A model generated the notes under the pieces. That model had not been told where the DNA came from. It searched no databases and was given only the letters and a program-made list of their open reading frames with translations. The position numbers and the translations under genes were made by a program. Positions 8,111 through 37,778 of a stretch of DNA of 64,000 nucleotides are shown one piece after another. Every line of letters begins with the position of its first letter. Position 1 is the first letter of the stretch. The stretch spans positions 2,607-66,606 of the forward strand of contig CALRGV010000006.1 in the NCBI GenBank assembly GCA_943358175.1. Reading direction: 5' to 3'. This DNA is from Candidatus Peribacteria bacterium. GTDB lineage: Bacteria > Patescibacteriota > Gracilibacteria > UBA1369 > LOWO2-01-FULL-3.

Positions 8111-8677
8111 ATGTCAAAAAAACTAAGTTTAACTCTCACAGCAATTATAGCAACAGTCGGTCTCACCGCATTTTCAATTTCCAATGCTTTCGCTTTGGAT
8201 GGAGACCCTCAGGACACAGCACCTTTGACTTCAGCTAAGCAGCTCTGTAAAGAGGCAACTAAAAACTTTTCAAAAGACAAGAATGCCATCAAAGCAAAAG
8301 GTCTTAGCTCACAAAAATGGATGGAGGATAATGGAGCAAAAATGAGTCAGGCAGAACTTGATGAAATGAAGAAAAATGAGGATCTGGCTATCAAGGATAT
8401 CAAAGATTACAAAAAGAAAGTTTGCGCTGAAGCTAAAACTGAAGGACAACCATTAACCTCAGCCGTTCAACTTTGCAAAGAAGCGACTAAGAACTACAAA
8501 AAGGATACTTCTGCCATCAAAAAAAAGGGACTTAGCGCACAAAAATGGATGGAGGATAATGGAGCAAAAATGAGTCAGGCAGAACTTGATGAAATGAAGA
8601 AAAATGAGGATCTATCTATCAAAGATATAAAAGATTACAAAAAGAAAGTTTGCGCTGAAGCCAAAGCCGGCAAATAA
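8111..8677 (+). CDS. Secreted Lys/Glu-rich protein built from two 76-aa tandem repeats
   Basis: Signal peptide (…ISNAFA/LDG). Residues 38-113 and 114-188 are near-identical repeats with two Cys each. Confidence 0.7.
   Translation: MSKKLSLTLTAIIATVGLTAFSISNAFALDGDPQDTAPLTSAKQLCKEATKNFSKDKNAIKAKGLSSQKWMEDNGAKMSQAELDEMKKNEDLAIKDIKDYKKKVCAEAKTEGQPLTSAVQLCKEATKNYKKDTSAIKKKGLSAQKWMEDNGAKMSQAELDEMKKNEDLSIKDIKDYKKKVCAEAKAGK
8222..8677 (+). repeat. Intragenic tandem duplication, 2 x 228 nt
   Basis: Unit 1 is 8222-8449 and unit 2 is 8450-8677. A 76-nt core is identical (8310-8385 = 8538-8613). Confidence 0.9.
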
Positions 8678-8699
8678 TTGAAAACTAAATAAACAGTCA

Positions 8700-9992: not shown

Positions 9993-9997
9993 AAATT

Positions 9998-11599: not shown

Positions 11600-11600
11600 C

Positions 11601-11936
11601 ATGAGATTTTCAGAGATCAAAAATGCGTTGAAACACCTGATAAAGACAACTACTTGTCTACATTGTCAGCATCTTTATGTATTAGAAGATATTAATGTTA
11701 TCGCTACAACCAAGGTTGAAGGCCTATTCGAGATGCAATGCAATAATTGTCATGCATCCAGCATCATGACCGTGGTACTTACCCCGGAAACTGAAAAAAT
11801 GGAAACGAAGAAAAAAAACATCTATGAAGCGGAATTTCGTCCTGGTCAAATTTCTCCAAATGACATCCTGGACCTCAAGCTCTTTCTCAATAAATTTGAT
11901 GGAGATTTTAAAAAACTTTTCCCCAACGAAAAATGA
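11601..11936 (+). CDS. Hypothetical protein with CxxC...CxxC zinc-ribbon-like pattern
   Basis: CLHCQ and CNNCH pairs. Starts 2 nt after the gltX stop. Confidence 0.5.
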   Translation: MRFSEIKNALKHLIKTTTCLHCQHLYVLEDINVIATTKVEGLFEMQCNNCHASSIMTVVLTPETEKMETKKKNIYEAEFRPGQISPNDILDLKLFLNKFDGDFKKLFPNEK

Positions 11937-12193
11937 AAAAAACAGCAAAAACTTTAGCGCTGATATTTCTCGGCACATCTCTAGTTTTAATTTCCGGCTG
12001 CAAACAAACCAAAGAAATTGGTGATAAATTTATCGACGACTCGAAAAAAACCTACGACACCGCCGCCGAAGAAGTAAAAAAAGCAAAAGACGCCACGATT
12101 CAAAAAGCAAAAGATATAGAAGACGCCGCCAACAAAATCAAAGCAGCCACGGAAGCCGTACAAAAAGTGACCGGGGACACTCCAAAAAAATAA
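11933..12193 (+). CDS. Small lipoprotein
   Basis: Signal peptide with lipobox LISGC. ATGA start/stop overlap with the upstream ORF. Confidence 0.6.
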   Translation: MKKTAKTLALIFLGTSLVLISGCKQTKEIGDKFIDDSKKTYDTAAEEVKKAKDATIQKAKDIEDAANKIKAATEAVQKVTGDTPKK

Positions 12194-16120: not shown

Positions 16121-18124
16121 CTACAAATCCTGCTCCAAAATCTTTGATTTCGTTAGCACATAGAGCTTCTTCGCACTCGGATCTACATACAAATCACGCA
16201 AATCACCAACTCCGTCAAACAAATACTGAGTTACGTAATTCAAATTCCCGGTATTGTTAGTGTCCTTTGAGTAAACTAAAACTCTGGCTTCCCTGCCATC
16301 CAACACAAATATCTGTTTCAATTTATCATTTGTATAAATAACTCTTGGATCAACTAAATTACTAAATGGCGGATTGTTCACAAAGAAAGAAACTTTGGCA
16401 CCACCATATAACTTCAAGAGATCACCGGTTGTCTGCAACAACCAAACATTAGCATCAATGGCAAAATCCTGAATTCCGGAAACGTCAGTCTTATCTGTGA
16501 TATAGCCTTCAGCCTTACTGAATTTATTGTTGATTCCCTTATAAGTATATTTCCAGATTTGATTAGCCGCAGTATCCAAAACATAGACTTTATTGCTCCA
16601 TGTAGCCAAAGCAGATCCTTTATGGAAAGCCCCATCATCACTATCCATAAAATTCATATTCCCATCCTTGAACTGAATCAGTTTTCCACTTTTGGTCAAG
16701 AAAATTATAGATTTCTGATCATCAAAACCGGTAGCGGCAATCACAGACTCCTCCTTATCGATAGTCAAAGGATCCTGAATCTGATCGAGCACCAATTCAT
16801 ACAAAGCATTATACTCATACGCAAACACTCTATCTCCTTCAGTCACAAAACCAAGAGCGTTCACATCCGCTCTCTTTTTAGCCAAATCAGCTACCACCTT
16901 AGGATTCACTACGCGATTAACATTGTCCAGCTTGTCACGGGTTTCCTCAAGCTGCAAAAGATAAATAGTGGCCTTCTCTCTATAAAATCCTGAATCCAAC
17001 ACAGACTTAGCATCCAAATAAGCCTTATCTAGAACATCCTTGGCTGCCTGCTTATCAGTTGCACTTTTAACGGTAGCATCGGTCAATTTATCTTGAACAC
17101 CGCTCAATAATTGATCATATTTTTGTAACTGAGCTTTCTCCACCCTATTACTATTTGCAAATATCACCAATACTCCCAAAATAACTATAACTCCAACCAA
17201 CAAAGCTAAAATTTTATTTTTTCCCAATCCGTTCCCAATCAAACTTTCTTTAAATCCTCCGAACCAACCACCAACTTTCGCGGCCATATCTCCACCAAAT
17301 CTTGCAACACCGGCACTTCTTTTACCTGAATCACGTTTAAAAACACTAAAGAACTTACCGGTCAAAGTATTTTTTCTTGCAGAAACACCCACTTCATCAG
17401 CTTCAAGCATACCCCTGCTCACATGATCCTCTCCTCCGGCTATTTCCTCCATATCACTTTGGCTTGCCCTTGAAAAAGCCACTCCAGTCAAACCAACTCT
17501 ACCCAAAATTTCAGTAGCAATAATATCTCTTACATTCGCCAAGGCCTGAGCCATATCCTTACGATGCACGGCTTCGGCTAAATCAGCTTTACCAATATAA
17601 CGAACAAGTCTTGTAGATGAAAACATCACCACGTCACCTTCTTCAATTTTACCATTGGCAATAGTTGAAAAAACATCTTCCCCATTACTTTCTTCATTCA
17701 AACCCTCGCTTAAAACACTGATATAACGCTTACGAATAAGATAGGCCTCCGCGTCTCCGGTCTGAGTCAAAAACAATTCATCACCAACAATTGCCGCCAC
17801 TATCACATTCAAATTACCAATATATCCGGAAGTTTTTTCAGCTTTAAACTTACACATGACAGCATTGATAGCCTTCAAAGCCACTTCAAAACGAGCATAT
17901 GGCTCATTAGCCACATCCTCAAAAAACACTTTCTGCATCGTCTCAAAAATTGTTTGAGCAATTTCCTCGGCATCCACAGGATTGTTCTGAATCTCCAAAT
18001 TGATAAAAATCTGCCCGCTTTTCTCCCCATGATCCTGAAAAAGATCATAAGCATAATTTTCTAAAAAACTATTATCGTCTCTACCAACAAACAAAAACTC
18101 ATAATCCGCTTTGAGTGCTGCCAT
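16121..18124 (-). CDS. Membrane-anchored hypothetical protein: N-terminal cytoplasmic domain, one TM helix, large C-terminal extracytoplasmic domain
   Basis: 667-aa ORF. TM helix ILALLVGVIVILGVLVIFA mid-protein. A weak PP2C/SpoIIE-like signature (GDAEAYLIR) has no clear metal-binding motifs, so function is uncertain. Confidence 0.5.
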   Translation of the reverse strand: MAALKADYEFLFVGRDDNSFLENYAYDLFQDHGEKSGQIFINLEIQNNPVDAEEIAQTIFETMQKVFFEDVANEPYARFEVALKAINAVMCKFKAEKTSGYIGNLNVIVAAIVGDELFLTQTGDAEAYLIRKRYISVLSEGLNEESNGEDVFSTIANGKIEEGDVVMFSSTRLVRYIGKADLAEAVHRKDMAQALANVRDIIATEILGRVGLTGVAFSRASQSDMEEIAGGEDHVSRGMLEADEVGVSARKNTLTGKFFSVFKRDSGKRSAGVARFGGDMAAKVGGWFGGFKESLIGNGLGKNKILALLVGVIVILGVLVIFANSNRVEKAQLQKYDQLLSGVQDKLTDATVKSATDKQAAKDVLDKAYLDAKSVLDSGFYREKATIYLLQLEETRDKLDNVNRVVNPKVVADLAKKRADVNALGFVTEGDRVFAYEYNALYELVLDQIQDPLTIDKEESVIAATGFDDQKSIIFLTKSGKLIQFKDGNMNFMDSDDGAFHKGSALATWSNKVYVLDTAANQIWKYTYKGINNKFSKAEGYITDKTDVSGIQDFAIDANVWLLQTTGDLLKLYGGAKVSFFVNNPPFSNLVDPRVIYTNDKLKQIFVLDGREARVLVYSKDTNNTGNLNYVTQYLFDGVGDLRDLYVDPSAKKLYVLTKSKILEQDL

Positions 18125-18216
18125 ATATTGATTCTAAATTATAACTGGGCCAAATATACAAGGGTTAAGGGTCTATGGCAAGCGCTTTTATCGTATATTT
18201 CGGAGATCAATCAACA

Positions 18217-18245
18217 TTGACTTCCCCAAATCTTCAATATAGAAT
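18217..18245 (+). promoter_or_regulatory. Sigma70-type promoter for rpmH-rnpA-yidC
   Basis: TTGACT (18217-18222), N17, TAGAAT (18240-18245). Confidence 0.45.
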
Positions 18246-18297
18246 CAGCCAGCTAGACACGCAACCTTATACCAATAATAAACTAAATTCAAATCAT

Positions 18298-18429
18298 ATG
18301 TTAGAAAAACTAAAGAAACGTGCCCGTCTAAAAACTCATGGTTTCCGCAGTAGAAAAGCCCCTGTTTTGGCTAGACGCCGTGCAAAGGGTCGCAAGCAAT
18401 TGACTGTTTCAATTCATTCTAAAAAATAA
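18298..18429 (+). CDS. rpmH: 50S ribosomal protein L34
   Basis: ...KTHGFRSRKAPVLARRRAKGRKQLTV. The true start is internal ATG 18298, not the track start at 18175. Confidence 0.9.
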   Translation: MLEKLKKRARLKTHGFRSRKAPVLARRRAKGRKQLTVSIHSKK

Positions 18430-18788
18430 TGCTCGCCACAAAATACCGCGTTCCCAGACAATATATTGATTATATTCTGAAGAAAGGCGAATCTTATACC
18501 TCTAAGCTCTTCATCGTAAGATATAAAACGAACAGAGAAAACTTCTGTCGTTATAGAATAGTCATCAGTAAAAAAGTTGATCCAAAAGCGGTAAAAAGAA
18601 ATTATTTGCGCAGACAAAGCTACGAAGCAATTCGTCTAAACCTGCCTACCGGACAGGCAGGCCTGCCAAAAAATCCTACCACTGGACTTGATGTGATTCT
18701 CATCACGAAAAAGAATGCCATCAAAGCTTCCTATAAAACCATAGAGGAAGACCTTAAAAACAATATCATCAACAGAAAACATGGATAA
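18429..18788 (+). CDS. rnpA: Ribonuclease P protein component
   Basis: Follows rpmH with a TAATG overlap. 119 aa and basic, with a KLFIVRYK and AVKRNYLRR pattern. Confidence 0.8.
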   Translation: MLATKYRVPRQYIDYILKKGESYTSKLFIVRYKTNRENFCRYRIVISKKVDPKAVKRNYLRRQSYEAIRLNLPTGQAGLPKNPTTGLDVILITKKNAIKASYKTIEEDLKNNIINRKHG

Positions 18789-20028
18789 ATTTAACAAAAT
18801 ACTCAAGAACGTTTTAATCTTTCTAATTATTTTCTTGATTGTTAACTATATCGCTCAAAGCTGTCAGAGCAACAACACCCAGATTAACACAAATCCAGGC
18901 AGTATCACCTTTACAAGCACATCAAACGAGTTTAGTCGCCGTGAAGACGTAAGTGTAAACATTTTCAACGACAGCAAAGAAACCATAACTCTTCCAAATG
19001 AATGCCCGGGAGAGCCATTTGAAGTATACAGATTTGAAAACAACAGCTGGTTACAAAAAACCATTACGCCAAAACTGGATTGCAAAAATACCGCAGAGCT
19101 CAAAGTAGAAGCAGGCAAAGAACTAAAAGTAGCTTATACCAATTGGAGCAACGGCCTGTTTGGAGAAATGGGACGCTACAAGATTTCTTTCGCTACGACT
19201 ATAAACAAGAAACCAATTACCATCTCCACCAATGAATTTACAGTTGTGAAAGAAGGCATCTTTCGCCAATTATTTACCGGACTATTCTACCGCCCAATCT
19301 ATAATGGGCTTATTTTCTTAGCGTCTATTGCCCCGCATCACGACCTTGGAATCGCCATCATCCTTCTTACAATTCTTATACGTACCATCCTGCTTGTTCC
19401 TTCTCAAAAATCCATGAAGTCACAACGCCGAATGCAAGAACTTCAACCACGTCTTAATAAAATTAAAGAACAACACAAAGGTGACCAACAAAAAATTGCC
19501 TCAGAGACAATGGCTTTATGGAAAGAAGCCAAAATTAGTCCTTTTGGCAGCTGCTTACCTATATTGATGCAATTCCCTTTCTTGATTGCCCTATTCTACG
19601 TAATCCAAAATGGACTCAATCCAGACAACACTTACTTATTATACGCCCAGTATGAGAATTTCTCCCTTTCGGATATCAACACAAATTTTCTTGGAATTCT
19701 CGATCTGACAGCCATAAACTTTTACGTTCTTCCTGTGATTATCGGCGGATTACAATTCATTCAAATGAAACTTTCTTTCGCAAAAAAACAGCAAGCAGAA
19801 GGAGCAAAAAATGTTCCTGAAACAAAAAATGAAATGGCCATGGCCAACAGTATGATGACCTATGTCATGCCCGTAATGATCGCAGTATTCACCGCCACTC
19901 TACCGGCAGGTGTGGGAATTTACTGGGGAACTTCAACTCTTTATGGCATAATACAACAGTTATTCGTAAACAAAGGAGGCAAGAAAAAAGATCCGAACGA
20001 ACCGACGGTAAAAGTGATTAACAGTTAA
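18781..20028 (+). CDS. yidC: Membrane protein insertase YidC
   Basis: C-terminal 60-kDa insertase core (PIYNGLIFL, KMQELQPRLNKIKEQHKGD, GCLPILMQFPFLIALF). Conserved rnpA-yidC-jag order. Confidence 0.85.
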   Translation: MDKFNKILKNVLIFLIIFLIVNYIAQSCQSNNTQINTNPGSITFTSTSNEFSRREDVSVNIFNDSKETITLPNECPGEPFEVYRFENNSWLQKTITPKLDCKNTAELKVEAGKELKVAYTNWSNGLFGEMGRYKISFATTINKKPITISTNEFTVVKEGIFRQLFTGLFYRPIYNGLIFLASIAPHHDLGIAIILLTILIRTILLVPSQKSMKSQRRMQELQPRLNKIKEQHKGDQQKIASETMALWKEAKISPFGSCLPILMQFPFLIALFYVIQNGLNPDNTYLLYAQYENFSLSDINTNFLGILDLTAINFYVLPVIIGGLQFIQMKLSFAKKQQAEGAKNVPETKNEMAMANSMMTYVMPVMIAVFTATLPAGVGIYWGTSTLYGIIQQLFVNKGGKKKDPNEPTVKVINS

Positions 20029-20108
20029 CAGGCGACAAGGTCGCCCGGCGAGCATAAGAGCGAGCAAGCTGAGCGAAGCGAAAACAAATCATTCTTAATT
20101 AAAAATAT

Positions 20109-20573
20109 ATGGACATCGAAGATTTATTAAAAGAAACTCTCGAAGAGATTCTCAAAAAATTAGGCACGCCATACACCAAACTCATCATCAGCGAAGACGA
20201 AAAAGACAGTTATCTCGTAAACATCAAAAGTGATGAACCGAGCCTCCTCATAGGTTATCACGGTGAAAACATCCAGGCCCTTCAGCATCTTTTAAAGGTA
20301 TTGGTTTGGGGAAAAGCTAAAAGTGAAAAATTTAATATTCTTGTGGATATCGACGATTATCGCAAACGTCAAGAAGACAATGTAATTGCTTTAGCTCAAC
20401 GAAAAGTCGATGCCGTACGCAAGACGGGGCGCAAACAAATTTTGCCACCAATGTCACCATACTTCCGCCGCAAAATTCATCTTTACTGCATGGGTGCCGG
20501 TTTCGACGATATAGAAACTTCCAGCGAAGGAGAAGATGATCGCAGACATCTAATAATAAAGCTTAAAGCCTAA
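20109..20573 (+). CDS. jag: Jag/KhpB-like RNA-binding protein (KH + R3H)
   Basis: LLIGYHGENIQALQHLL (KH-like) and C-terminal R3H-like RRKIHLY. Position after yidC. Confidence 0.7.
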   Translation: MDIEDLLKETLEEILKKLGTPYTKLIISEDEKDSYLVNIKSDEPSLLIGYHGENIQALQHLLKVLVWGKAKSEKFNILVDIDDYRKRQEDNVIALAQRKVDAVRKTGRKQILPPMSPYFRRKIHLYCMGAGFDDIETSSEGEDDRRHLIIKLKA

Positions 20574-21841: not shown

Positions 21842-21869
21842 TTGACATTGCCTTTGCAATCCTTATACT
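21842..21869 (+). promoter_or_regulatory. Sigma70-type promoter for tRNA-Glu
   Basis: TTGACA (21842-21847), N16, TATACT (21864-21869), about 25 nt before the tRNA 5-prime end. Confidence 0.45.
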
Positions 21870-21894: not shown

Positions 21895-21969
21895 GGCGCC
21901 ATCGTCTAATGGTTAGGACAGCGGGTTTTCATCCCGTAAACGGGGGTTCGATTCCCCCTGGCGCTACCA
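21895..21969 (+). tRNA. tRNA-Glu (anticodon UUC), CCA encoded
   Basis: Hand fold: GGCGCCA/UC/GUC-UAAUGGUUAG-GAC/A/GCGGG-UUUUCAU-CCCGU/AAAC/GGGGG-UUCGAUU-CCCCC/UGGCGCU/A/CCA. 75 nt. Confidence 0.92.
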
Positions 21970-21970: not shown

Positions 21971-23203
21971 CTACTTTTCCGCAACAACATTAACATCCTC
22001 CATTTTAGTCCCGGGAACATACCCGGCTGAAACTCTTTTTACTTTATCGCTAATATTCAAAACCGTTCCATTTACACTTGGCGCGGTAATTGGAGAATCC
22101 CCTTTCTCTAAAACTATATCACCAAAAACTCTTACCGATGATGACAAAGCCAAGCGATAATCTCCTTCAGGCAAACCATCAACCGGAAGATCCACTCGGA
22201 CAGAATCAAGTAAACTACCTCTGGATAATTGAGCAACCTCAACAGGCGCAGACGCATACTGCAACGTCCTATTAACAAATTCCGGCCTTAACCCATCCTT
22301 AATATTTGGCAACGCACCAGCCAGTTTTCTCGCATCCATTTCTCCAACCAAACCAGCCTTCACAATCACCGACTCAGGAATAACCACACCATCAGCATTA
22401 ACTTGCGGCGCAAGATTATCAAAAATCTGAGCCTGAGGTTCTTCAGTCAAACCCACATGCATCGTTTCAGAAATCAGCAAATCAATTGGCTTATCGTGCT
22501 GATATTTAGTTGCATCGGTACAAATAACTTTCACTCTCTCCTGAAGACCCAATCTCTCAATAATTTTCTCAGCCATTTTCGCGGAACCCTTATTCAATTC
22601 CAAGCAGGTAACTTTCACTTTTGAAGATTTCAAGGCTGCTAAAATACCAAAAAGAGGAATTGGCCCGGTACCAGCATCTACCATTTCTATTTCTTCACGA
22701 CGAACATCTAAATTTCCCAACGCTCCATACAATCCTTGAATAAATTTTATTGTTCGCTGTTCATCATTCATACACCCCAAAGCTCTTCCTAATTCTAATC
22801 CTTCACCATCCTCGATAAAATCAGCCTTATTCAAATTTTGTAGCAAAAATTCCTTCAATTCCCTCACGTCTCGACTCCACTCCGTATCCCCATTCAAATT
22901 GCCTAAAATACCGTCTACTCTAGCCCTCGCATTATCTTGAATTGCTGCATTTATAAAAGCCGGATCCTTAATTCGTTGACGAACAATTCTTTGCCTCTCT
23001 TTTGCGTCAAAAGCCGGTTCATTCAGCGCTCTATTAATGACAGGCATACAATGGCTACAAACAACTCCTACCATAGTATTCACTCCATCGACTCTAGGGC
23101 CACCTGCCTCAAACCTTCTATTCATCGCCAAATCCCTCGCACTTCCGGGATGAAGAACGGGCTCGCCCCTAATCACACAGGTTTTACTCGATTCAGCACC
23201 CAT
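21971..23203 (-). CDS. Class I SAM-dependent methyltransferase with PRMT-like motifs
   Basis: VDAGTGPIPLFG (motif I), VTCLELN, DLLISETMHVGL (resembles the PRMT ISEWMG motif). The track start 23263 is a TTG; ATG 23203 (MGAESSK...) is preferred. Confidence 0.55.
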   Translation of the reverse strand: MGAESSKTCVIRGEPVLHPGSARDLAMNRRFEAGGPRVDGVNTMVGVVCSHCMPVINRALNEPAFDAKERQRIVRQRIKDPAFINAAIQDNARARVDGILGNLNGDTEWSRDVRELKEFLLQNLNKADFIEDGEGLELGRALGCMNDEQRTIKFIQGLYGALGNLDVRREEIEMVDAGTGPIPLFGILAALKSSKVKVTCLELNKGSAKMAEKIIERLGLQERVKVICTDATKYQHDKPIDLLISETMHVGLTEEPQAQIFDNLAPQVNADGVVIPESVIVKAGLVGEMDARKLAGALPNIKDGLRPEFVNRTLQYASAPVEVAQLSRGSLLDSVRVDLPVDGLPEGDYRLALSSSVRVFGDIVLEKGDSPITAPSVNGTVLNISDKVKRVSAGYVPGTKMEDVNVVAEK

Positions 23204-23285
23204 CAAGAATAATTTAAAAGATATTAAATTATAACACGAATCAGCGCTCAGGCAAAGCCTCAAGCTCCCAATTCAAGCCAAAAAA

Positions 23286-23323: not shown

Positions 23324-26300
23324 ATGAGTCTCGAAGGAAATCAAAATATTGTTAAAAGCGAGCAAGGCCGTCTTGATAAAATCGATACAAAAATCGACAA
23401 AAAAGTCGTACTTAGCGGTAAGGATTATTCCAATATTGTTTTCAACAAAGTAGATACCACCATAGCTAAGGTAAACACAGATTTTGGCATAAAAAATGAA
23501 GCAATACTTAAAGACCAAAATTATCAGAACATGAAGACGAAAGCCCTCAATGGCATCACTCAAACACTCTTTAAACTGGATGAAAAAAACATTTCCGAGC
23601 TTGCCGGAAAACTCGATAAACTTCTCACTGCAATTGAACAAGGCGGAGAAAAAATGAGTACCCTCGATGCCTCTCTAAATTCATCCGACAAACTTGCGCA
23701 ACAACTAAAAAGCCTTAAAGAAAAAGGCGATATAGACGGCATGGTAAAAGCCACAAAAGAATACATGACCGCCAACGAGCAAACGCTCAACGATGCCCAA
23801 AAAGTCGATCTCCTAAATCAGCTCAACGGACAACTCCTTGCTCAATCGGAACAACTACGCAAAGGAGAGATAATGAATGTAAAAGGTGTCGAATGGCGCC
23901 TCGGAGACACGATTGTAGCCTCTCGACTAAACATGGATGAAAACGGTATTCATCATGAAATACACGAAATAGCCAAAGTGGAAAAAATCGATACCGCACA
24001 AGGAGTTATGCTTCGTGAAGGAGCAACGACTAAAACAATTCCTCTCACGAATTTTGAAGAATATCTCGATACCGGACTCGCCATTCAAAATCAATATGGC
24101 AAAGAAAAAAATCCATTCGCGCTCGGCAATGAACGCCGCATTATTGCCACACAATCCCCCAGCGATACTCTCGCAAAAGAAGCTCAAGAAATGCAGCAAA
24201 AAGCGGCCTTAATTGCCCTCAAAGATCTCGTGGTAAAAGGCAGCGCACTCGCCTCCTGCAAAGATTTTACGCCAAAATCTCCGCGTACTTTTGCTTTAAT
24301 CAGAGACAAAAACATTGCAATTGATACCAACACGGGCGCCGTAAATTTCGACAAAACCTTTGATAATTGCAGCATTGAAGATCAACAAATTGTAGTTGAT
24401 GAATTAGTACAATTCCTCAAAGGAAAAGGAGCAGAGCAAAAGGTAGAAGATGCTAAATCTCCGGAAGAAAAACTCTTCTACCAAGCTGAATTATCACTTC
24501 AAAAAGGAAATATTTCAGAAGCCCGTGGAGATTGCATCAAATTCATGCAATCACTCAATGGAAAAGAGCTCACTCCGGATCTACTTCCACTGAAAGAAAA
24601 AGCCGAAGGCTATCTCAAGGGAATGTGGCAACACAGCATGAACGAGCTCAAACAAGCCAATGAAACAATGTTCGGCAAAGCCGCCCGCGAACAAGTCCGC
24701 GACAAAATGAAATATGGCATGCTCAAAGGCGATTCTCAACAAATGAAACGTTTTGAGGAAGCTTTTCAAGCTGTCCATAATCAAGCAAATGAACGCATCG
24801 AGGCCGCTTCTCAAGATTCAAAAACAGAAAACATTCTTCAAGATCCTTCCTCAATTTTCAAAGACCTTCCACAGCCATCAGGAGAAAATGCTAAAGAAAT
24901 CACGGCATGTCAGGATGCTTGGCAAAAAATTGCTTTCGCCCAAACCATGGACATGCGCAATAATTCTTCGGCGCAAAAACAAGAAAACTACGCTGATGCC
25001 GCAGACGCTCTCCGCGCACTCGGTCTCTATGATTTCTCCGAGGATTTCGTAAAAAAAGGCCTACGTGACCGCCTGGATATAAATAAAAACAGCGACACTC
25101 TGAAGGCAAAAAAACAAGAATGCGTCATGCGTCTCAACTCACACCGCGAAGAATATGCCACCCGCGTAAAAAAACAATTTCTGGAACAAACACTCAACCT
25201 ATCGGGACGCCCCGAGCTAAGCGAGAAGCAATTCAATAACATGATTGATCAAGCGATAGACCGCGCTGCCGATCAACAAATTGACGCCGCCCTTCTTAAA
25301 TCCGCCGTCACGCAAATGGACGAAGGAGGACTGAAAGGTTCTGACGCACGACTAGCACAAATTTACAAAAATATTGAAAATCCTAATGAAAATTTACTGA
25401 GTTTCGGTGACAAAGAAATTGACGCCCTCGGAGATAAAGTAATACATTTTGCCGCTGAAATGGCTGTACAAGCAGCCCTCATGGCAGTCACCGGTGGTAT
25501 AGGAAATATTGCCACTGCAGGTGTGCGCACCGCATTGATGAGCGCGGGAGCACGCGAAGCAATCGCGGGAGCCGCAGGATTTATGGCAAACGCCGCCGCC
25601 TTCGAAGTAGCTACAAAAGTTCTCTCTCCATACGTCACCGGTGGCCCGGGATTCACCACTGCCGAAGATTTCGCCCTCGACTATGGAAAATCACTTCTCA
25701 TGTTTGGCGCACTACACGGCTTAGGCAAATTCGCCGGTGCCGCAAGCAAAGAAGCCAGCGCCACACAAGTAGCAAGTTTAGGCCAAAAAGCGACAATTTA
25801 CACCGCTCAACTGGGAACAGAAGTTGCCGTCCTCGCCGGTCTCTCAGAACTCGAAGCCGCCCGCGATGGAAAACTAACATCTATGAATGGCGTCCACCTT
25901 CTCGGTGAAAACGTCGCCGCAGTCCTCGGTCTCCGCGCCGGAACAAAACTTGTGCATGCAAGCGGGTTAAATGAAGGATTCGCAAAAGCTACGGAAGCAA
26001 CCGCAAAAGTCGTAGGAAAAACCGGCAAAAATTTCGCCGAAGGAGCAAGCAACGTAGTTGAGCTAAAAACTGAAAAAACAGCACAAGTCCCAGAATCAAC
26101 TCCATCTAAAATAAGTACGGCAAAATTAAATCAAACAATTGAGGGTCCATTAACAAAATCATCAGAATTCAAAGTGAATGATCGTCCCCTGGGAGAAACC
26201 ATCAAACCACCGGCAAAAACAGATCCAAGAAGTTATGCTCAGACAATCGAAGAGATAATTAAAGACCCGAAGAAACAACAAGAACTTGGTATTAAACCAG

Positions 26301-27085
26301 AAGACTTGCCGGTAGTTATTAGATTCCATGAATATATTAAAAATCTTGAAGGGAAAGTGCAAACTCTGCGTGATGAAGCACTACAGGCAAGAGGAGTTCT
26401 TGATAGTATCATTGATGACATCGCTCTTAAATCAGACATCGCCGAGGGAGGTAAAATGAATAATGTACCAATCAAAGGAATGCCACGTATCATGGAAAAA
26501 GTTATAGATTCCACTTCTGAAGGTTATAATGGAAATATTTCCCAACTCCGTGATCTGGCCCGCGGCACGATTGTATTCAAGTCATTCGAAGATATCCCCC
26601 ATGCGCTAGAAACATTACAAAGTGATCCGAGAGTATCAAAATTATACGTAAAAAATAATATTGGCGATGCATACGGAAAGACACCTCATCCTGCCGGCTA
26701 CCGTGATGTCAACATAACTATGGAGGTTATCTCAAACGGAAAACCACATGTGGTTGAGCTACAACTCCACGTAAAAGAAATGATCGAAGCCAAAGAAAAA
26801 GGCCGTCCAGTCGATCCAGCAAAAATTGCCGATCTTGGATTTACAACGCATGATCAAGAGATGGTAAGAAAACTCGATCCAAAACTACAAATTGTAAGGG
26901 AAGGTAATATTGTTAAAGGTCATGAACTTTATGAAATTTGGCGTAAAATTGGAGAAAATGATCCTATGGACATGCAGATACTGAAGAAAAAACTAGAAAA
27001 CTTGATGCAAAAAGTCTACAATGATGCATGGCAAGATGTATTAAAAAAACACGATAGTAAGCCAGCTCTTAAAAAAGCCGCGTAA
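23324..27085 (+). CDS. Giant protein with C-terminal RelA/SpoT-type nucleotide pyrophosphokinase (alarmone-synthetase-like) domain
   Basis: C-terminal motifs PIKGMPRIMEKV, LRDLARGTIVF, PAGYRDVNITMEV, HVVELQLHV. The N-terminal ~1000 aa are unrecognisable. Gly/Ala-rich hydrophobic block mid-protein. Confidence 0.7.
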   Translation: MSLEGNQNIVKSEQGRLDKIDTKIDKKVVLSGKDYSNIVFNKVDTTIAKVNTDFGIKNEAILKDQNYQNMKTKALNGITQTLFKLDEKNISELAGKLDKLLTAIEQGGEKMSTLDASLNSSDKLAQQLKSLKEKGDIDGMVKATKEYMTANEQTLNDAQKVDLLNQLNGQLLAQSEQLRKGEIMNVKGVEWRLGDTIVASRLNMDENGIHHEIHEIAKVEKIDTAQGVMLREGATTKTIPLTNFEEYLDTGLAIQNQYGKEKNPFALGNERRIIATQSPSDTLAKEAQEMQQKAALIALKDLVVKGSALASCKDFTPKSPRTFALIRDKNIAIDTNTGAVNFDKTFDNCSIEDQQIVVDELVQFLKGKGAEQKVEDAKSPEEKLFYQAELSLQKGNISEARGDCIKFMQSLNGKELTPDLLPLKEKAEGYLKGMWQHSMNELKQANETMFGKAAREQVRDKMKYGMLKGDSQQMKRFEEAFQAVHNQANERIEAASQDSKTENILQDPSSIFKDLPQPSGENAKEITACQDAWQKIAFAQTMDMRNNSSAQKQENYADAADALRALGLYDFSEDFVKKGLRDRLDINKNSDTLKAKKQECVMRLNSHREEYATRVKKQFLEQTLNLSGRPELSEKQFNNMIDQAIDRAADQQIDAALLKSAVTQMDEGGLKGSDARLAQIYKNIENPNENLLSFGDKEIDALGDKVIHFAAEMAVQAALMAVTGGIGNIATAGVRTALMSAGAREAIAGAAGFMANAAAFEVATKVLSPYVTGGPGFTTAEDFALDYGKSLLMFGALHGLGKFAGAASKEASATQVASLGQKATIYTAQLGTEVAVLAGLSELEAARDGKLTSMNGVHLLGENVAAVLGLRAGTKLVHASGLNEGFAKATEATAKVVGKTGKNFAEGASNVVELKTEKTAQVPESTPSKISTAKLNQTIEGPLTKSSEFKVNDRPLGETIKPPAKTDPRSYAQTIEEIIKDPKKQQELGIKPEDLPVVIRFHEYIKNLEGKVQTLRDEALQARGVLDSIIDDIALKSDIAEGGKMNNVPIKGMPRIMEKVIDSTSEGYNGNISQLRDLARGTIVFKSFEDIPHALETLQSDPRVSKLYVKNNIGDAYGKTPHPAGYRDVNITMEVISNGKPHVVELQLHVKEMIEAKEKGRPVDPAKIADLGFTTHDQEMVRKLDPKLQIVREGNIVKGHELYEIWRKIGENDPMDMQILKKKLENLMQKVYNDAWQDVLKKHDSKPALKKAA

Positions 27086-27115
27086 TAAAAAACAATAAAC
27101 ATAACCAATAATTTT

Positions 27116-27391
27116 ATGGAAGAACCAGAAACAACAACAGGATGGGGTGATGACCCAGATAAGCCTTATGCAGACGTTTGCAAAGAGCGCGCAGGGACAA
27201 CTCTTTTTTGGCTTGTGGACAATGTACCTGTTAGAGAACAATACAGTACTGATGGACAAACCTCTCAACGCTTTGGGCTAAAGGAGGGCCAATGGGTACC
27301 GGGCTATCCCGGAGAATCCACATTCTTTGAAAATGCCTCAAGAGTTGAACAAGCTGACTTTGATGCAGCAGTAAACAAATCAACTAATTGA
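27116..27391 (+). CDS. Small acidic hypothetical protein (candidate immunity/antitoxin)
   Basis: 91-aa ATG ORF, 30 nt after the RSH-domain gene and 6 nt before the HD hydrolase gene. No recognisable motif. Confidence 0.5.
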   Translation: MEEPETTTGWGDDPDKPYADVCKERAGTTLFWLVDNVPVREQYSTDGQTSQRFGLKEGQWVPGYPGESTFFENASRVEQADFDAAVNKSTN

Positions 27392-27397
27392 TTCAGT

Positions 27398-28012
27398 ATG
27401 GAAAGTGACTTTGGAAATAAATTCGAAGACATTAAAGATAGTACCAAGTTGGAACAACAATTTTGGATACTGATTGAGTCTAAAATGCCACAGGCAAAAG
27501 AGAAGATAAAACAAGCATTCGCCTACTCAAAAGAAAAACATGAAGGGCAAGAACGTGACGAAGGAACTCCTTACTACTCTCACTGTATAGCTACAGCAAT
27601 AAATCTATTAGAGTACACCACTAGTCCCACTGAAGATCAAGTATGCATCGCCCTTCTCCATGATACCCTAGAAGATACGAATGCAACTTATGATGAACTG
27701 ATGGCTAAATTTGGTAACTACGTTGCCGAAGGAGTTCAATTACTATCAAAGAAGAGAGATGGGAAAAAAATTAGTAATGACGAATATTACGACGGACTTA
27801 GAGGTCGTAAAGATCTCATAGATATAAAAGGTAGCGACAGACTAGCCAATATTTTTTCAATTGTACATTCCCCAAGTCCGCAAAAACAAGAAAGATACCT
27901 TAGAGAAACTAGAGCTAATATTATTGGATTAGTTAGCAGCGTACATGAAGATTTCAGTAAAGTTATCGCGAGTGCAACAGATATGGCAGAAAAGAAAATT
28001 AGAGAAAAATAA
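27398..28012 (+). CDS. HD-domain small alarmone hydrolase (RelA/SpoT hydrolase-domain homologue)
   Basis: HEGQERDEGTPYYSHCIATA, ALLHDTLEDT, IKGSDRLANIFSI. These match the order and wording of (p)ppGpp-hydrolase HD_4 motifs. Confidence 0.8.
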   Translation: MESDFGNKFEDIKDSTKLEQQFWILIESKMPQAKEKIKQAFAYSKEKHEGQERDEGTPYYSHCIATAINLLEYTTSPTEDQVCIALLHDTLEDTNATYDELMAKFGNYVAEGVQLLSKKRDGKKISNDEYYDGLRGRKDLIDIKGSDRLANIFSIVHSPSPQKQERYLRETRANIIGLVSSVHEDFSKVIASATDMAEKKIREK

Positions 28013-28022
28013 TTATCAATTT

Positions 28023-28325
28023 ATGTCCACCGACACCCTGAAAAACCTGATTCGCCAATGCCTACTTCTCAAGCCGGAGCGCCGAGAAGGCCTCATTGCG
28101 CGCCTCGACACTTTGAATGAAAATCAAATTAAAGAAATGGAAAAAGCCATCACGGAATCAAACGAATTTCTGAGAAATATCATCGCAAAAACTTCAGAGA
28201 ACGAAGACCCAAACACCTTCAATCAAAAAATCGATCAAATTTGGAAAAAATACATTCAAGACACCGAAAACATCTCCAGTGGAATAGAAAACACCGCGGC
28301 CGATAATCTTTTGGCGAATTTATAG
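28023..28325 (+). CDS. Small helical hypothetical protein
   Basis: 100-aa ORF from ATG 28023, 10 nt after the hydrolase stop. The track start 27945 overlaps the hydrolase gene and is unlikely. Confidence 0.45.
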   Translation: MSTDTLKNLIRQCLLLKPERREGLIARLDTLNENQIKEMEKAITESNEFLRNIIAKTSENEDPNTFNQKIDQIWKKYIQDTENISSGIENTAADNLLANL

Positions 28326-28329: not shown

Positions 28330-28358
28330 TTGACCCCTTCCACTAAAGGCCCTATGAT
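28330..28358 (+). promoter_or_regulatory. Sigma70-type promoter placed for a leaderless Nudix mRNA
   Basis: TTGACC (28330-28335), N17, TATGAT (28353-28358), then 6 nt to ATG 28365. Confidence 0.5.
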
Positions 28359-28364: not shown

Positions 28365-28919
28365 ATGGCCTGGAAAGTTCTCAAATCCGAAATCGTTCTT
28401 GAAAACAAATTTTTCAAGGTGCACAAAGATCGTTGCGAAAAAAGTGACGGTAAAATTGTCGAAAATTATTACACCATCGAACGTCCGAACGTAGCCATCA
28501 TCGCCGCTTTCACCCCCCGGATGGAATTAATTATGATTAAACAATATCGCCATCCGGTCCGTAGCACAGACTATGAAATTCCAGCCGGCTTCATCGAACC
28601 CTTCGAAACCGACATCGCTCAAGCCGCAAAAAGAGAATTACTCGAAGAAACCGGTTACGAAGCGGAATCTTTAGAAAAAATTCAGGAAACATTTTCTTCT
28701 GCCGGATTTATGAGCAATCACATCAATTTCTTCATAGGCTTCAACGCAAAAAAAATCGCCGAACAAAAATTGGACGATAGCGAAGAACTCGAAGCTCATA
28801 TCATTCCCTGGACTCAAGCGCTGGAATTTTTACAACAAGAAAAAGTAAAAGACCTCGGATCTATTACCGGTATGCTTTTAGCTAAAAAATATTTAGAAAA
28901 ACATGATCTACCTCGATAA
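28365..28919 (+). CDS. Nudix hydrolase (ADP-ribose pyrophosphatase-like)
   Basis: Nudix box GFIEPFETDIAQAAKRELLEETGY. Confidence 0.85.
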   Translation: MAWKVLKSEIVLENKFFKVHKDRCEKSDGKIVENYYTIERPNVAIIAAFTPRMELIMIKQYRHPVRSTDYEIPAGFIEPFETDIAQAAKRELLEETGYEAESLEKIQETFSSAGFMSNHINFFIGFNAKKIAEQKLDDSEELEAHIIPWTQALEFLQQEKVKDLGSITGMLLAKKYLEKHDLPR

Positions 28920-30072
28920 CGCCGCCACCACACCGGTTGACCCCAAAGTCCTCGAAGCCATGCTCCCGTATTTTTGCGAAGAATACGGCAATGCCGAATC
29001 TCTGCATACAAAAGGCCAAAACGCCCGCATGGCTGTAGACACGGCTCGCGAAATCATTGCAAAAGTCCTCAATTGCCAAGCTACAGAAATTATTTTTACC
29101 AGCGGTGGAACCGAATCCAATAATCTAGCAATTTTTGGCGCGACTCGAGCCAATGTAAAAAAAGGCCGCCACCTCATCGTCAGCTCAATAGAACACTCTT
29201 CCGTGCGCGAACCATTCAACAAACTTGAAGAGGAAGGCTTCGAAATCACGCAGATAAAAGTAGACAAAGAAGGTTTCGTAAATCCAGCCGACATCGCCAC
29301 AGCTATTCGCCCTGACACAATTCTCGTATCCGTTATGTACGCCAACAATGAAATCGGCACTCTGGAACCAATCGCTGAAATTGGAAAAATATGCCGTGAA
29401 AAAAACATAATTTTCCACACCGATGCCTGCCAAGCCGCCGATTCTCAAATGCTCGACGTAAAAAAACTTCAGGTAGATATGCTGACTCTCAACGCCAGCA
29501 AAATCTACGGACCAAAAGGCGCCGGAGCTCTCTACGTAAAACACGGCATAAAAATTTCTCCACAAATTCTCGGCAGCTCCCACGAAATGGGAATACGCGC
29601 CGGCACACACAATGTTCCGGGAATAGTAGGACTAGGAAAAGCTTTAGAACTAGCCGTAATCGACCAGGACAAAAAATCCGCACACCTCACAGCTCTCCGC
29701 GACAAATTCATTAAAGGCATTTTAGAAAAAATCCCAAATTCACAATTAAACGGCCCAAATCCTTTCGATCCCAAATACGCGACCACCCCCTGTCCCCGCC
29801 TCCCAAACAACACAAATTTCACTTTCAAAGGAGTCGAAGGTCCAGACCTTCTCCTGCAATTAGACAATCTCGGCATCTACATTTCGACCGGCGCCGCCTG
29901 CAATATACCAGGCTCAAAACCCTCAAATGTTCTCACCGCCATCGGCATATCTAAAGAATCAATTCAAAGCAGCGTCCGCATGACTCTGGGCAAAACCACC
30001 AGCGAAGCAGATATCGATCATGTGCTGGAAGTACTACCCAGACTAATTGAAAAAATGCGCACACGAATATAA
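28903..30072 (+). CDS. Cysteine desulfurase (class V aminotransferase, NifS/IscS-like)
   Basis: YLDNAATTP, HTDACQA, NASKIYGPKG (PLP lysine), STGAACN (active-site Cys). Confidence 0.88.
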   Translation: MIYLDNAATTPVDPKVLEAMLPYFCEEYGNAESLHTKGQNARMAVDTAREIIAKVLNCQATEIIFTSGGTESNNLAIFGATRANVKKGRHLIVSSIEHSSVREPFNKLEEEGFEITQIKVDKEGFVNPADIATAIRPDTILVSVMYANNEIGTLEPIAEIGKICREKNIIFHTDACQAADSQMLDVKKLQVDMLTLNASKIYGPKGAGALYVKHGIKISPQILGSSHEMGIRAGTHNVPGIVGLGKALELAVIDQDKKSAHLTALRDKFIKGILEKIPNSQLNGPNPFDPKYATTPCPRLPNNTNFTFKGVEGPDLLLQLDNLGIYISTGAACNIPGSKPSNVLTAIGISKESIQSSVRMTLGKTTSEADIDHVLEVLPRLIEKMRTRI

Positions 30073-35222: not shown

Positions 35223-37778
35223 ATGGCTGAAAATGCATTACAAGAAGACTTAGACCTAAGTCCTCAAGAAAAACAGCAAGATAAAAATAATCAGAATGGA
35301 CCTGATGGCCTTAGCGATAAAAAACTCTCGGATAATGAGATTAAAGATTTGAAAGATGGGAAAACCAGCATCCCTAAACTGGTTGCCGAACGTATGCGCC
35401 TGAAAACAGCTGCCGAAGCCGAGATGAAGGAATTAGCCAAAGGAACAAACACCAAAGCTCCGGTTCTAGATCTAAGAGAATACCGCGATCTCCAAGCAGA
35501 GCTAAACACCACCGACAGCCCAGAGGAAACTCAAAAAATCCTGGATAAAATTCGTGATCTTCCAAAAAGAAAAGAAGCCCAAGCTGAAGAAGATAAAAAC
35601 GACGCCCAGGAACTCCCCCCGAACGACCCAAAACTGAAAGAACTTCAAACTAAATTCAACAAGATTTGTGATGACAATCAGGAACTCATCGGTGAAGGAC
35701 AAATCGACGGCAACAAAGCTTGGTTTGCGGAAGAAATGAGGAAAACTCCCACTCCCGCCCACCTCAAAGATCTGATCAAAAGAATGGAAGGTAAAGATAT
35801 TGAAGATAAAAACGGTCTCGCTCCTCGTCGTAAAGAATATGCAAAACTCACCGATTTGTTCAAAAAATACGGCCTGGACAGCCCCCAAGATTCCGCCTAC
35901 ATCAAAAAAGAAGGTCTCAGCGAACGTCAAAATTTCCGCAAACAAATTGAAGCCCTCGAAGATCATTTCTCAAAAATGAAAGATACCGGCTTCTATTCTC
36001 CGGAAAAAATAAAAGAGATGATGAAGGAAAACCTCAAAGCTGAAAATCCTGAAAAAATCACCGATAATATAAAAGCGGCCGGAGAAATCGCCCGCAAAGA
36101 AGCTGAAGGATTCACCCATTTGAACGAACAAGTTACCGTAGGAGGAGTCACTATTCACAAAATGAGTGAAGCCTCAAAAAAACAATATCTCGATTACTAC
36201 CGAGAATTAAACCTCAAAGATCGTAAAGAAAAAGGAGTGGACCAATGGCAAGCCATGGTCGACAACGAAGGAGCCCTAGCCAAACATTCAGATAAATTTT
36301 CCAATGTATATGCCGATCACGGTGTCCAAGCTCTCGATCAAATTTACAAAGATAATCCTGACGCCCTCCGTCTAGCCGTTCAGGGCTTCGAGACATTGGA
36401 TTTCATGCAAAAAGTAGATGCTTTAAAAAAGCACGCTGTCCTGGTAAAGGTCGCTAAAAACAAGGAAGAATTAGAACAAAATCTCACTTTCCAAGCAATT
36501 GGTGCTCATCTCGATAAAGCCACCGGCGATAAAAATATTTCCGGAAAAACTCGCGATAGATATCTCCAATTTTTCAAAGATCCAAACAACTTCAGAAATC
36601 CGGACACCAAAACGCCAGGAGATATGAAGGAGTTCAAAAAAGCTTACAGTGTTTTGATCAGCCCTACCCCGGACGAGAAACATAAAAATCTTGCAGCCTA
36701 TGAAGAACGTCGCAAAGAATTCGTCAAAGAATTAAAAAAATTGCAGGAAATTAATCCGGCAATTTCAGCTGAAGATATCAAAAAATGGCAGGACAAATAC
36801 GACGCTGAAGGCTGGACAAAACGTGAACAAATCCACAATCAAGAGTTGAAACCGAAAATGTCCAAAGAAAATGAAGATCGTAAAAAACGTATTGGTATCG
36901 AAGAAAAAGCCGGCATGAAAAAAGAGGACAAAGAAAAGAGCAAAGAAAGCGTAGCCGGACTCGCCGAAACAATCACAGCCGTCACCGAACTTATGGCCAA
37001 CGATCAAGGCGCCGAAGCCATGAAAAAACTGCTTGAATTCAATGAGACCCAACCGGACAATCCAAAAATTATTTTCTGGATGCAAACCGTTGCCAACTAC
37101 ATGAAAGAATTTGGCAGTGGCAAAAAACGTGAAGCAACAATTGATAAAGAACTCGAACAAGAAATGGAAAAAGTAGCCACCACCGATAAAGGCACTCAGG
37201 ACGAACTCCTGGAACAACAACTCAAAACCCTCAACATGGAAGGTGTAAAACAAAGTGAACAACGCCACAATCAGACTATTTCCGGCCAAGAAAGAGCCCG
37301 TAAAGAATCTATGGGCCGTGTACAAGAAGGCTCAGTGGAAGCCGAACTTACAACTGATGCCTACAAACAATTAGGCAAAGACTTCCAAATTAACAAAGAA
37401 GGAAAAGCTCAGAAAATCGAAGAAATTCAATTCAAAGATGGCAACATCAAAATGCAGGAACAAGATCGTTTCCGTATGAAACGCGAAACCTTCAAAGAAC
37501 AAACAAAACTTGATAAAAAAGAAGGTATGTTTACCGCCATGAAAGACAAACAGGGCAACGTCATTGATCACAAAGTTGCTGCAGCTCTACAACAAGCGGA
37601 ATTGGAAAAACTTGAAAAAGAAATGGCCGAAAGAGCTCAGAAAAAAGTGGAAAGCCGTGTTACTTCAAATGACACTCAAGGCGCCAAGATTTTTGATCTA
37701 AACACTAGAATAGCAGCTCGACGTAAAGCAAAAGAGCTTATCGACGAACAACGTCATGAAAAACTGAAAGCTGCATAA
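35223..37778 (+). CDS. Large (851 aa) highly charged Lys/Glu-rich orphan protein
   Basis: Uninterrupted ATG ORF. No signal peptide, TM helix or recognisable motif. The antisense ORFs on the track are shadows. Confidence 0.6.
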   Translation: MAENALQEDLDLSPQEKQQDKNNQNGPDGLSDKKLSDNEIKDLKDGKTSIPKLVAERMRLKTAAEAEMKELAKGTNTKAPVLDLREYRDLQAELNTTDSPEETQKILDKIRDLPKRKEAQAEEDKNDAQELPPNDPKLKELQTKFNKICDDNQELIGEGQIDGNKAWFAEEMRKTPTPAHLKDLIKRMEGKDIEDKNGLAPRRKEYAKLTDLFKKYGLDSPQDSAYIKKEGLSERQNFRKQIEALEDHFSKMKDTGFYSPEKIKEMMKENLKAENPEKITDNIKAAGEIARKEAEGFTHLNEQVTVGGVTIHKMSEASKKQYLDYYRELNLKDRKEKGVDQWQAMVDNEGALAKHSDKFSNVYADHGVQALDQIYKDNPDALRLAVQGFETLDFMQKVDALKKHAVLVKVAKNKEELEQNLTFQAIGAHLDKATGDKNISGKTRDRYLQFFKDPNNFRNPDTKTPGDMKEFKKAYSVLISPTPDEKHKNLAAYEERRKEFVKELKKLQEINPAISAEDIKKWQDKYDAEGWTKREQIHNQELKPKMSKENEDRKKRIGIEEKAGMKKEDKEKSKESVAGLAETITAVTELMANDQGAEAMKKLLEFNETQPDNPKIIFWMQTVANYMKEFGSGKKREATIDKELEQEMEKVATTDKGTQDELLEQQLKTLNMEGVKQSEQRHNQTISGQERARKESMGRVQEGSVEAELTTDAYKQLGKDFQINKEGKAQKIEEIQFKDGNIKMQEQDRFRMKRETFKEQTKLDKKEGMFTAMKDKQGNVIDHKVAAALQQAELEKLEKEMAERAQKKVESRVTSNDTQGAKIFDLNTRIAARRKAKELIDEQRHEKLKAA

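Follow-up and report, generated by a model that had tools for sequence, protein, structure and literature searches.

A 64,000-nt stretch of a Candidatus Peribacteria bacterium contig (CALRGV010000006.1; hereafter the window) carries a gene for a large putative toxin followed by three small open reading frames (ORFs), and we analysed these genes as a candidate toxin-immunity locus. The toxin gene (23324..27085, + strand) encodes a 1253-amino-acid (aa) protein and lies directly upstream of the small ORFs, which are on the same strand. The first of them, o91 (27116..27391), encodes an acidic 91-aa protein, the candidate cognate binding immunity protein. The second, termed HD here (27398..28012), encodes a predicted 204-aa single-domain small alarmone hydrolase (SAH), the candidate enzymatic antidote. 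The third, o100 (28023..28325), encodes a 100-aa helical protein; its position suggests co-transcription, and it is probably outside the toxin-immunity cassette. The ORF list and coordinates confirmed the co-directional arrangement and the gaps of 30, 6 and 10 nt between the four genes that a first-pass annotation, made from the letters alone, had reported. The gene calls on the source contig agree with these ORFs. The same annotation described the 91-aa protein as acidic and the 100-aa protein as helical, and both descriptions were borne out, by an isoelectric point (pI) of 4.23 and by an all-helical prediction, respectively.

When 15 long window ORFs served as the codon-usage training set, o91, HD and o100 each scored best in their own frame. 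An alternative 126-aa reading of o100, starting at 27945, is possible. The extra 78 nt gave a non-coding score in the o100 frame and a coding score in the HD frame, and position 28023 was therefore taken as the start. No sigma-70-like site was found on the + strand within 27116-28325, in agreement with the earlier observation that no promoter-like element lies among the three ORFs. The nearest upstream promoter-like site (26994-27022) is weak and lies inside the 3′ end of the toxin gene. The nearest downstream site (TTGACC-17-TATGAT; 28330..28358, + strand) is better than the upstream one. It lies just after o100 and before a Nudix gene, and probably marks where the next transcription unit (Nudix, nifS and following genes) begins.

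The C-terminal part of the 1253-aa protein (the tip) contains a Tas1-like RelA/SpoT-type synthetase (toxSYNTH-like) domain (26375..26989, + strand; about aa 1018-1222). When the C-terminal ~250 residues were compared as a single sequence with the PDB, the sole match was Tas1 (6OX6_A; E 3.8e-7), over ~170-200 residues and at low identity. A profile of 10 toxin-domain sequences matched Tas1 at E 3e-12 and the small alarmone synthetase YwaC at E 5e-4. Exhaustive HMMER search revealed 662 relatives of the domain at E<=1e-3, the closest being 45% identical; in most of the strong relatives the domain is C-terminal, in proteins 400-3100 aa long. The synthetase motifs K..K (the ATP-binding pair), D-x-x-R-G, Y-R-D, E-x-Q and Y..R were kept across 10 relatives, with K91, K99, D117, R120, G121, Y166, R167, D168, E185 and Q187 invariant (numbering of the 10-relative alignment). 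The motifs of the window protein align with the equivalent motifs of Tas1.

The 1253-aa protein had no Pfam or NCBIfam match at E<=0.1, RelA_SpoT (PF04607) included, and no family match in PADLOC or PHROGs. Close relatives of its toxin domain reached 20-22 bits against PF04607 (cut-off 27), and a phage relative, 36% identical to the window domain, passed at 30.6 bits. Because of this phage relative and the matches to Tas1 and YwaC, the gene can be assigned to the RelA/SpoT homologues (RSH). Judged by sequence, the window domain is a divergent RelA/SpoT-type synthetase of the Tas1/Apk kind, belonging to the Pfam family by transitivity only. The description of the upstream gene as "RSH" in the first-pass annotation thus stands on similarity to Tas1 and YwaC and on the phage relative, and not on a Pfam or NCBIfam match of its own. 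A word-indexed protein search with the toxin domain alone returned no match and missed even the window's own 1253-aa protein; with the 10-sequence alignment it returned one protein. Since this search missed the query protein and relatives that the exhaustive search found (E down to 6e-49), absence from it is weak evidence for the toxin family. Four of the toxin-domain relatives (P0016, P0018, P0022 and P0138) contain 5-7% Trp, and P0016 and P0018 have only 0.6% Gly, with W where other relatives have G. These high-Trp sequences look like proteins of genomes that read UGA as Gly (code 25) but were translated with UGA as Trp.

The N-terminal ~1000 aa of the toxin comprise a charged helical part and then an Ala/Gly-rich hydrophobic stretch (about aa 691-905), which includes the single strongly hydrophobic segment of the protein (aa 706-724). 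Residues 1-1000 had no sequence match in the PDB, and the N-terminal region showed no similarity to any of 151 toxin-domain relatives. No PAAR, Rhs, LXG, MuF or DUF4157 domain was found in the toxin with Pfam, NCBIfam, PHROGs, PADLOC or the PDB.

With 44.4 bits against Pfam HD_4 (PF13328; cut-off 27.2; E 1.9e-11; aa 40-171 of 204), the HD protein is above the family threshold; it has no synthetase or regulatory domain. Its best PDB match was the Thermus Rel enzyme TtRel (E 2.6e-14), followed by the SAH PaSAH (6YVC; E 1.7e-11), other Rel enzymes and MESH1; Aph1 (7SMG) was matched at E 1.3e-4. The C-terminal half alone matched PaSAH best but weakly (E 0.015), with a common short LSK..DG.K.S.D-Y linker. 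The motifs HEGQER, ALLHDTLEDT and DRLANIFS are present, and H48-E-G-Q-E-R53, H88-D89, E92-D93 and D147-R148...N151 align one to one with the TtRel residues. The family match, the TtRel and PaSAH matches and the intact motifs support the earlier identification of HD as a small alarmone hydrolase. The motifs had further been read as a (p)ppGpp-hydrolase signature; they occur as written, but they do not discriminate among (p)ppGpp, (p)ppApp and a pyrophosphorylated tRNA end.

Specificity of Aph1 for (p)ppApp is associated with the signature D24, R96, D116, R119, K133 and Y134 (PMC10083569). We mapped HD onto Aph1 by combining the HD-TtRel alignment with the published structural equivalences, in which TtRel R43/R44/S45 correspond to Aph1 D24/K25/A26 and TtRel N150 to Aph1 N114 (Ahmad et al., PMC10083569). 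The HD residues at these TtRel positions are R53/D54/E55 and N151. At the three mappable signature positions HD differs from Aph1 (D24 is replaced by R53, D116 by F153 and R119 by V156). R166-Y167 is a possible equivalent of K133/Y134, and R96 could not be mapped. On sequence grounds, HD is classed as an SAH of the general Rel/PaSAH type and not of the Aph1 type. A profile scan of genome contigs with the HD alignment returned the locus L007 described below and three ordinary long Rel/SpoT genes; viral scans returned stand-alone phage SAHs with no toxin nearby.

The o91 protein has a net charge of -9.5. A 102-aa homologue (35% identical, E 7e-16) occupies the same position in the related locus L004/L007, and a word-indexed search of a 5.8-billion-protein database returned only o91 itself. 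No PDB sequence match was obtained with o91 alone or with the two-sequence profile. A single-sequence AlphaFold2 model (predicted local distance difference score, pLDDT, 68; predicted template-modelling score, pTM, 0.55) suggests an alpha/beta fold with a helix, three to four strands and a C-terminal helix. Foldseek found no significant match for this model and nothing informative in BFVD.

Gene order was compared with that of related loci. The closest, L004, came from a metagenome scan, and L007 is the same locus in a metagenome-assembled genome (MAG) labelled "Patescibacteria group bacterium". L004 contains, in order, a 102-aa helical ORF, a 1294-aa toxin, an IS4-like transposase (L004 7118-8284 = L007 3758-4924), an orphan 229-aa toxin tip (L004 8291-8980 = L007 4931-5620), the 102-aa o91 homologue and a 203-aa HD homologue that is 42% identical to the window HD (E 6e-52). 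The transposase thus lies between the full-length toxin and the orphan tip, and the two tips share 81% aa and 84% DNA identity. Alignment of the full-length toxins of the window and L004 was confined to the last ~350 residues, the N-terminal regions being unrelated. The full-length toxin is therefore modular, with homologous tips on unrelated N-terminal carriers. A 200-aa K+-channel-like protein with a long coiled-coil tail is encoded two genes upstream in the L004 locus.

The same order was found in two phage settings. A metagenomic phage-like fragment (L005) encodes a 480-aa toxin, a 68-aa ORF and then an HD protein, and Bordetella phage vB_BbrM_PHB04 (MF663786.1) encodes a portal protein, a 493-aa RelA_SpoT-domain protein, a 69-aa ORF and a 192-aa HD protein. 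The PHB04 toxin domain and HD are 36% and 33% identical to those of the window. The 68- and 69-aa proteins are acidic and 58% identical to each other; a PDB profile search with this pair gave no match. Membership of these small ORFs in the o91 family was rejected, as 452 of 2000 shuffled sequences scored as well, and they are positional analogues only. The small proteins that follow the tip are all acidic (pI 4.2-4.6). The order of tip, small acidic ORF and HD was thus found in four independent loci (window, L004/L007, L005 and PHB04). Conserved synteny had been proposed as a check on the original idea: o91 and HD follow the toxin tip in L004 and have positional equivalents in L005 and PHB04, but o100 is not syntenic.

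Other scans with the toxin alignments yielded domains outside such a cassette. A genome-contig scan gave no relative, and viral scans gave virion-region proteins of high-GC phages with an internal Tas1-like domain and no adjacent HD or o91. Three high-GC phage contigs from IMG/VR (L014, L015 and L016; about 3800-6090) encode 700-aa proteins whose central domain is very like Tas1 (DPTKIKDLVRGT...GYRDAKFNV...HVAEIQVN). As read from the translations, these genes lie among large genes of a structural module, and a terminase-like gene follows downstream; neither an HD gene nor a small immunity-like gene adjoins them. In viral contig L006 a Tas1-like domain is located inside an ORF of >2900 aa (3224-11941). 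An Azospirillum oryzae plasmid (NZ_CP054617.1; L017, 4857-5576) encodes a stand-alone 239-aa hypothetical protein with a weak RelA_SpoT match, 31% identical to the window toxin domain; it adjoins a HigB-type toxin-antitoxin (TA) pair and has no HD gene nearby.

Base composition delimits a similar unit. The toxin linker and C-terminal domain, o91 and HD form a compositionally distinct block (26039..28012, + strand) by third-position GC content (GC3) and GC skew. GC3 in linker plus tip, o91 and HD is 0.23-0.30, relative to 0.406 ± 0.064 in 49 other window genes, and GC skew is +0.06 to +0.09, relative to -0.132 ± 0.099 in 32 + strand genes. The toxin N-terminus and the Nudix gene resemble the rest of the genome, and o100 is host-like (GC3 0.505, skew -0.175). 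The L004 cassette genes show the same GC3 drop. Composition agrees with synteny, which is suggestive of a cassette of tip, o91 and HD with o100 outside it.

o100 is predicted to be all-helical, with three helices (H3-14, H18-57 and H63-98; single-sequence model, pLDDT 66, pTM 0.38). It had no family or PDB sequence match, and a Foldseek search of the PDB returned only designed or generic helical bundles. No homologue lies downstream of the HD gene in L004, and none was significant in any fetched locus. A comparison with the 102-aa ORF directly upstream of the L004 toxin gave a local score of 54 (shuffled, 30.7 ± 6.0; 5 of 2000 reached 54) and a global score of 34 (shuffled, -18 ± 12; 0 of 2000); the BLAST E-value was 0.95, and this ORF had been chosen by eye. 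A PDB profile search with the pair gave no match. As a lead only, a ~100-aa helical protein may accompany the carrier region. The first-pass annotation had included the 100-aa ORF in the neutralising module. Its absence after HD in L004, the lack of a significant homologue and its host-like composition do not support that inclusion, and o100 is probably not part of the neutralising cassette.

We interpret the locus as a polymorphic-toxin-type cassette with two-layer protection by o91 and HD, and assign this reading a probability of about 0.6. The tip of the 1253-aa protein would most likely transfer pyrophosphate from ATP to adenine nucleotides, forming (p)ppApp and draining ATP; synthesis of (p)ppApp is proposed because Tas1 is the nearest characterised enzyme. 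For the small acidic o91, acting in the cytoplasm, the most likely role is binding to the toxin domain with blockage of the active site, as its position, its co-inheritance with the tip and its charge suggest. HD most likely hydrolyses the 3′-pyrophosphate of the product that escapes o91, a step proposed because of its family membership and intact catalytic motifs. Tip, o91 and HD seem to be transferred or recombined together onto different N-terminal carriers. o100 would be co-transcribed but belong to the resident genome; it may be unrelated, or may act for the carrier region as chaperone or adaptor. A separate housekeeping unit would begin with the downstream Nudix gene. Two features of polymorphic toxins were found, namely homologous tips on unrelated N-terminal regions (window vs L004) and an orphan tip with an immunity cassette (in L004/L007, not in the window). 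A locus combining a binding immunity protein (91 aa and/or 100 aa) with an enzymatic antidote had been envisaged at the outset. For o91, a conserved partner of the toxin domain, and for HD, this idea gains comparative evidence and matches demonstrated systems; for the 100-aa ORF it is not supported.

Several observations weigh against this interpretation. In the window, the family libraries and the PDB revealed no signal peptide, secretion-system gene or known delivery domain. Just four independent loci are available, the known o91 family consists of two proteins, and the composition deviates by ~2 standard deviations, which is not extreme. Profile-profile alignment (hhalign) of the L005/PHB04 small ORFs with o91 covered the C-terminal 34 residues only, at E 0.018 and a probability of 2.5%. 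o91 has no sequence similarity to Tis1, the immunity protein of Tas1; 6OX6 chain B was not matched at E<=10 by o91 alone or by the two-sequence profile. In the Foldseek search with the o91 model, itself of modest confidence, Tis1 (6OX6_B) ranked 43rd of 350,542 chains (TM-scores 0.36/0.40, root-mean-square deviation 4.4 Å over 72 columns) at a non-significant E of 3.3. Its target-normalised TM-score was above that of every better-ranked chain, and as Tis1 had been named as the target in advance, the modelled fold likeness is only suggestive. HD lacks the Aph1 specificity residues and retains the Arg that stacks on guanine in TtRel; the toxin may therefore make (p)ppGpp. For some exported synthetases of the Tas1-like clade, (p)ppGpp is the only product (PMC12691689). 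If the window toxin likewise yields (p)ppGpp and not (p)ppApp, the locus would join recent findings in showing that either alarmone can serve as a weapon.

Other explanations were weighed against the same evidence. The locus could be an intracellular TA or anti-phage defence system in which the N-terminal region senses infection and frees an effector of the toxic small alarmone synthetase (toxSAS) type, with o91 and HD curbing basal activity. Roles in TA and defence systems are known for toxSAS enzymes, and the FaRel gene lies between those for an SAH and a Tis1-like antitoxin (PMC11782079). The failure to find a signal peptide or secretion genes, and a match of the divergent neighbour (21971-23263) to PADLOC mad2 at E 1.7e-8, point the same way. 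We nevertheless consider this explanation unlikely. PADLOC gave no significant match for the toxin, o91, HD or o100, and the cited literature offers no example of a toxSAS carrying a 1000-aa sensor. C-terminal placement of the domain, unrelated N-termini with homologous tips, an orphan tip and immunity gene beside an insertion sequence, and the Ala/Gly-rich stretch are the pattern of a delivered polymorphic toxin. A different target would be the 3′-terminal CCA of tRNA, pyrophosphorylated by the toxin domain as by FaRel2, CapRel and PhRel2 and repaired by HD. SAH enzymes can promiscuously neutralise the products of different toxSAS (PMC11782079), and HD is of the general Rel/PaSAH type and not of the (p)ppApp-specific Aph1 type. 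This target is quite improbable, however, as the best and only strong solved relative of the toxin profile is Tas1, a (p)ppApp synthetase, and no structure of a tRNA-targeting toxSAS was matched at E<=1. The neutralisers of such toxSAS are pseudo-Zn-finger domains that carry a YXXY motif (PMC11782079), and o91 and its homologue have no conserved YXXY.

The remaining alternatives concern the partner genes. Small partners of large toxins, such as effectors of type VI and type VII secretion systems (T6SS and T7SS), are often chaperones or adaptors. HD might accordingly be the sole neutraliser, with o91, and perhaps o100, serving as a chaperone, adaptor or regulator for toxin folding or export; the lack of detectable homology between o91 and Tis1, and the weak similarity of o100 to the 102-aa ORF just upstream of the L004 toxin, would fit such a role. 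The o91 homologue in L004 follows an orphan tip that has no carrier, which indicates that o91 accompanies the toxic domain, not the delivery region. In acidic charge and in location right after the tip o91 resembles immunity proteins, and in one tested system (Apk2-BcTis1-Aph1) small protein and hydrolase both protect (PMC10083569). Protection by HD alone is thus a very doubtful proposition. It is hardly credible that the adjacency is incidental, with HD a housekeeping (p)ppGpp hydrolase and the small ORFs unrelated. HD is indeed closest to Rel-type hydrolases and to PaSAH, which is unlinked to toxin genes (PMC10083569), and the 64-kb window has no long RSH gene. Against this, the gene order recurs in four independent loci from very different organisms, and the atypical composition of the toxin tip and o91 extends to HD.

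The locus has a chromosomal, non-phage setting near rpmH-rnpA-yidC-jag. Genes on the + strand of the window have a mean GC skew of -0.13, and those on the - strand a coding-strand skew of +0.3 to +0.4. Since the cumulative GC skew falls throughout the 64 kb, the whole window lies on one replichore near rpmH-rnpA-yidC-jag. A tRNA-Glu(UUC) gene (21895-21969, + strand), with a near-consensus promoter-like site (TTGACA-16-TATACT; 21842-21869, + strand), is ~1.35 kb upstream of the toxin gene. An integrated island beside this tRNA gene was considered and rejected, as the interval from this gene to the Nudix gene gave no att-like direct repeat of the tRNA 3′ end. The neighbour with the mad2 match is a 430-aa ORF on the - strand, divergent from the toxin gene, with a class I S-adenosylmethionine-methyltransferase core and weak Pfam matches; a defence-type methyltransferase may thus neighbour the toxin.

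On the other side, o100 is followed by genes for a NudE-like Nudix hydrolase (28365-28919, + strand; NF008736, E 5.9e-20) and a NifS-type cysteine desulfurase (28903-30072, + strand), which overlap by 17 nt. Inclusion of the Nudix gene in the module was rejected because of its own promoter-like site, its overlap with nifS, its host-like composition and its absence from the related loci. Nudix and nifS look like a separate housekeeping unit; genes for N-carbamoylputrescine amidase and agmatine deiminase come after them. Further along, an 851-aa ORF (35223-37778, + strand; positions 17826-20381 of the source contig, L001) has no precomputed Pfam family on that contig and a strongly positive AT skew (+0.385).

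The locus presents o91 as a new candidate immunity family and, in a candidate immunity role, an SAH that belongs to the general Rel/PaSAH type and not to that of Aph1. Protection by binder plus hydrolase against alarmone-synthetase toxins has been shown in only a couple of systems. Here tip, binder and hydrolase seem to travel as one cassette across very distant lineages, including a Patescibacteria MAG (L007) and virulent phages. The large uncharacterised carrier region may be informative on toxin delivery in such bacteria. A bolder proposal, which we hold to be rather doubtful, is that a small-genome bacterium, probably from the Patescibacteria/CPR group, delivers an alarmone-synthetase toxin into host or rival cells by means of a new ~1000-aa carrier (a coiled charged part plus an Ala/Gly-rich membrane-active stretch), a ~100-aa helical partner (o100; the 102-aa ORF in L004) and a new immunity family (o91) that converged on Tis1 or diverged from it beyond recognition. 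If true, this would reveal an unknown delivery route in organisms without classical T6SS or T7SS machines.

By analogy, the arrangement proposed for the window is already known, as the published "bicistronic immunity". In the Apk2 (BcTas1)-BcTis1-Aph1 system of a Bacteroides caccae prophage, each protector is partial and both together give full protection (Ahmad et al. 2023, PMC10083569). As in that system, the window has a Tas1-like domain at the C-terminus of a larger protein, then a small protein, then a single-domain HD protein, all co-directional. Apk2 has a phage MuF domain as its carrier; the window toxin has ~1000 aa without a recognised domain and lies in a chromosomal, non-phage setting. 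In addition, o91 lacks similarity to Tis1 in sequence, and the window HD lacks the Aph1 signature at the three mappable positions. The type VI effector-immunity pair Tas1-Tis1 (Apk1) of Pseudomonas aeruginosa (PDB 6OX6) provides the nearest solved relative and likewise has a small gene directly downstream; the window differs in having no PAAR domain or T6SS genes, in its additional HD hydrolase and in its low identity to Tas1.

FaRel of Cellulomonas marina is a (pp)pApp-type synthetase neutralised by an SAH (ATfaRel) and a Tis1-like binder (AT2faRel) in one operon (PMC7229694, PMC11782079). FaRel is a small stand-alone TA toxin with antitoxins on both sides; in the window, the toxin domain forms the end of a 1253-aa protein and is followed by both candidate protectors. 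Among structures of stand-alone SAHs, PaSAH (6YVC) is nearest to the window HD (E 1.7e-11). It hydrolyses both alarmones, gives partial protection from Tas1 and has no genetic link to a toxin (PMC10083569). PHB04 has the same three-gene order as the window, in the context of a phage virion module; its 69-aa ORF is not significantly similar to o91, carries a hypothetical annotation only and has no characterisation that we could find. The window thus departs from the known cases in its unrecognised ~1000-aa carrier, an o91 unrelated to Tis1 in sequence, an SAH from outside the Aph1 family, a closest cassette relative in a Patescibacteria MAG (L007) and several toxin-domain relatives with the W-for-G pattern of UGA-recoded lineages.

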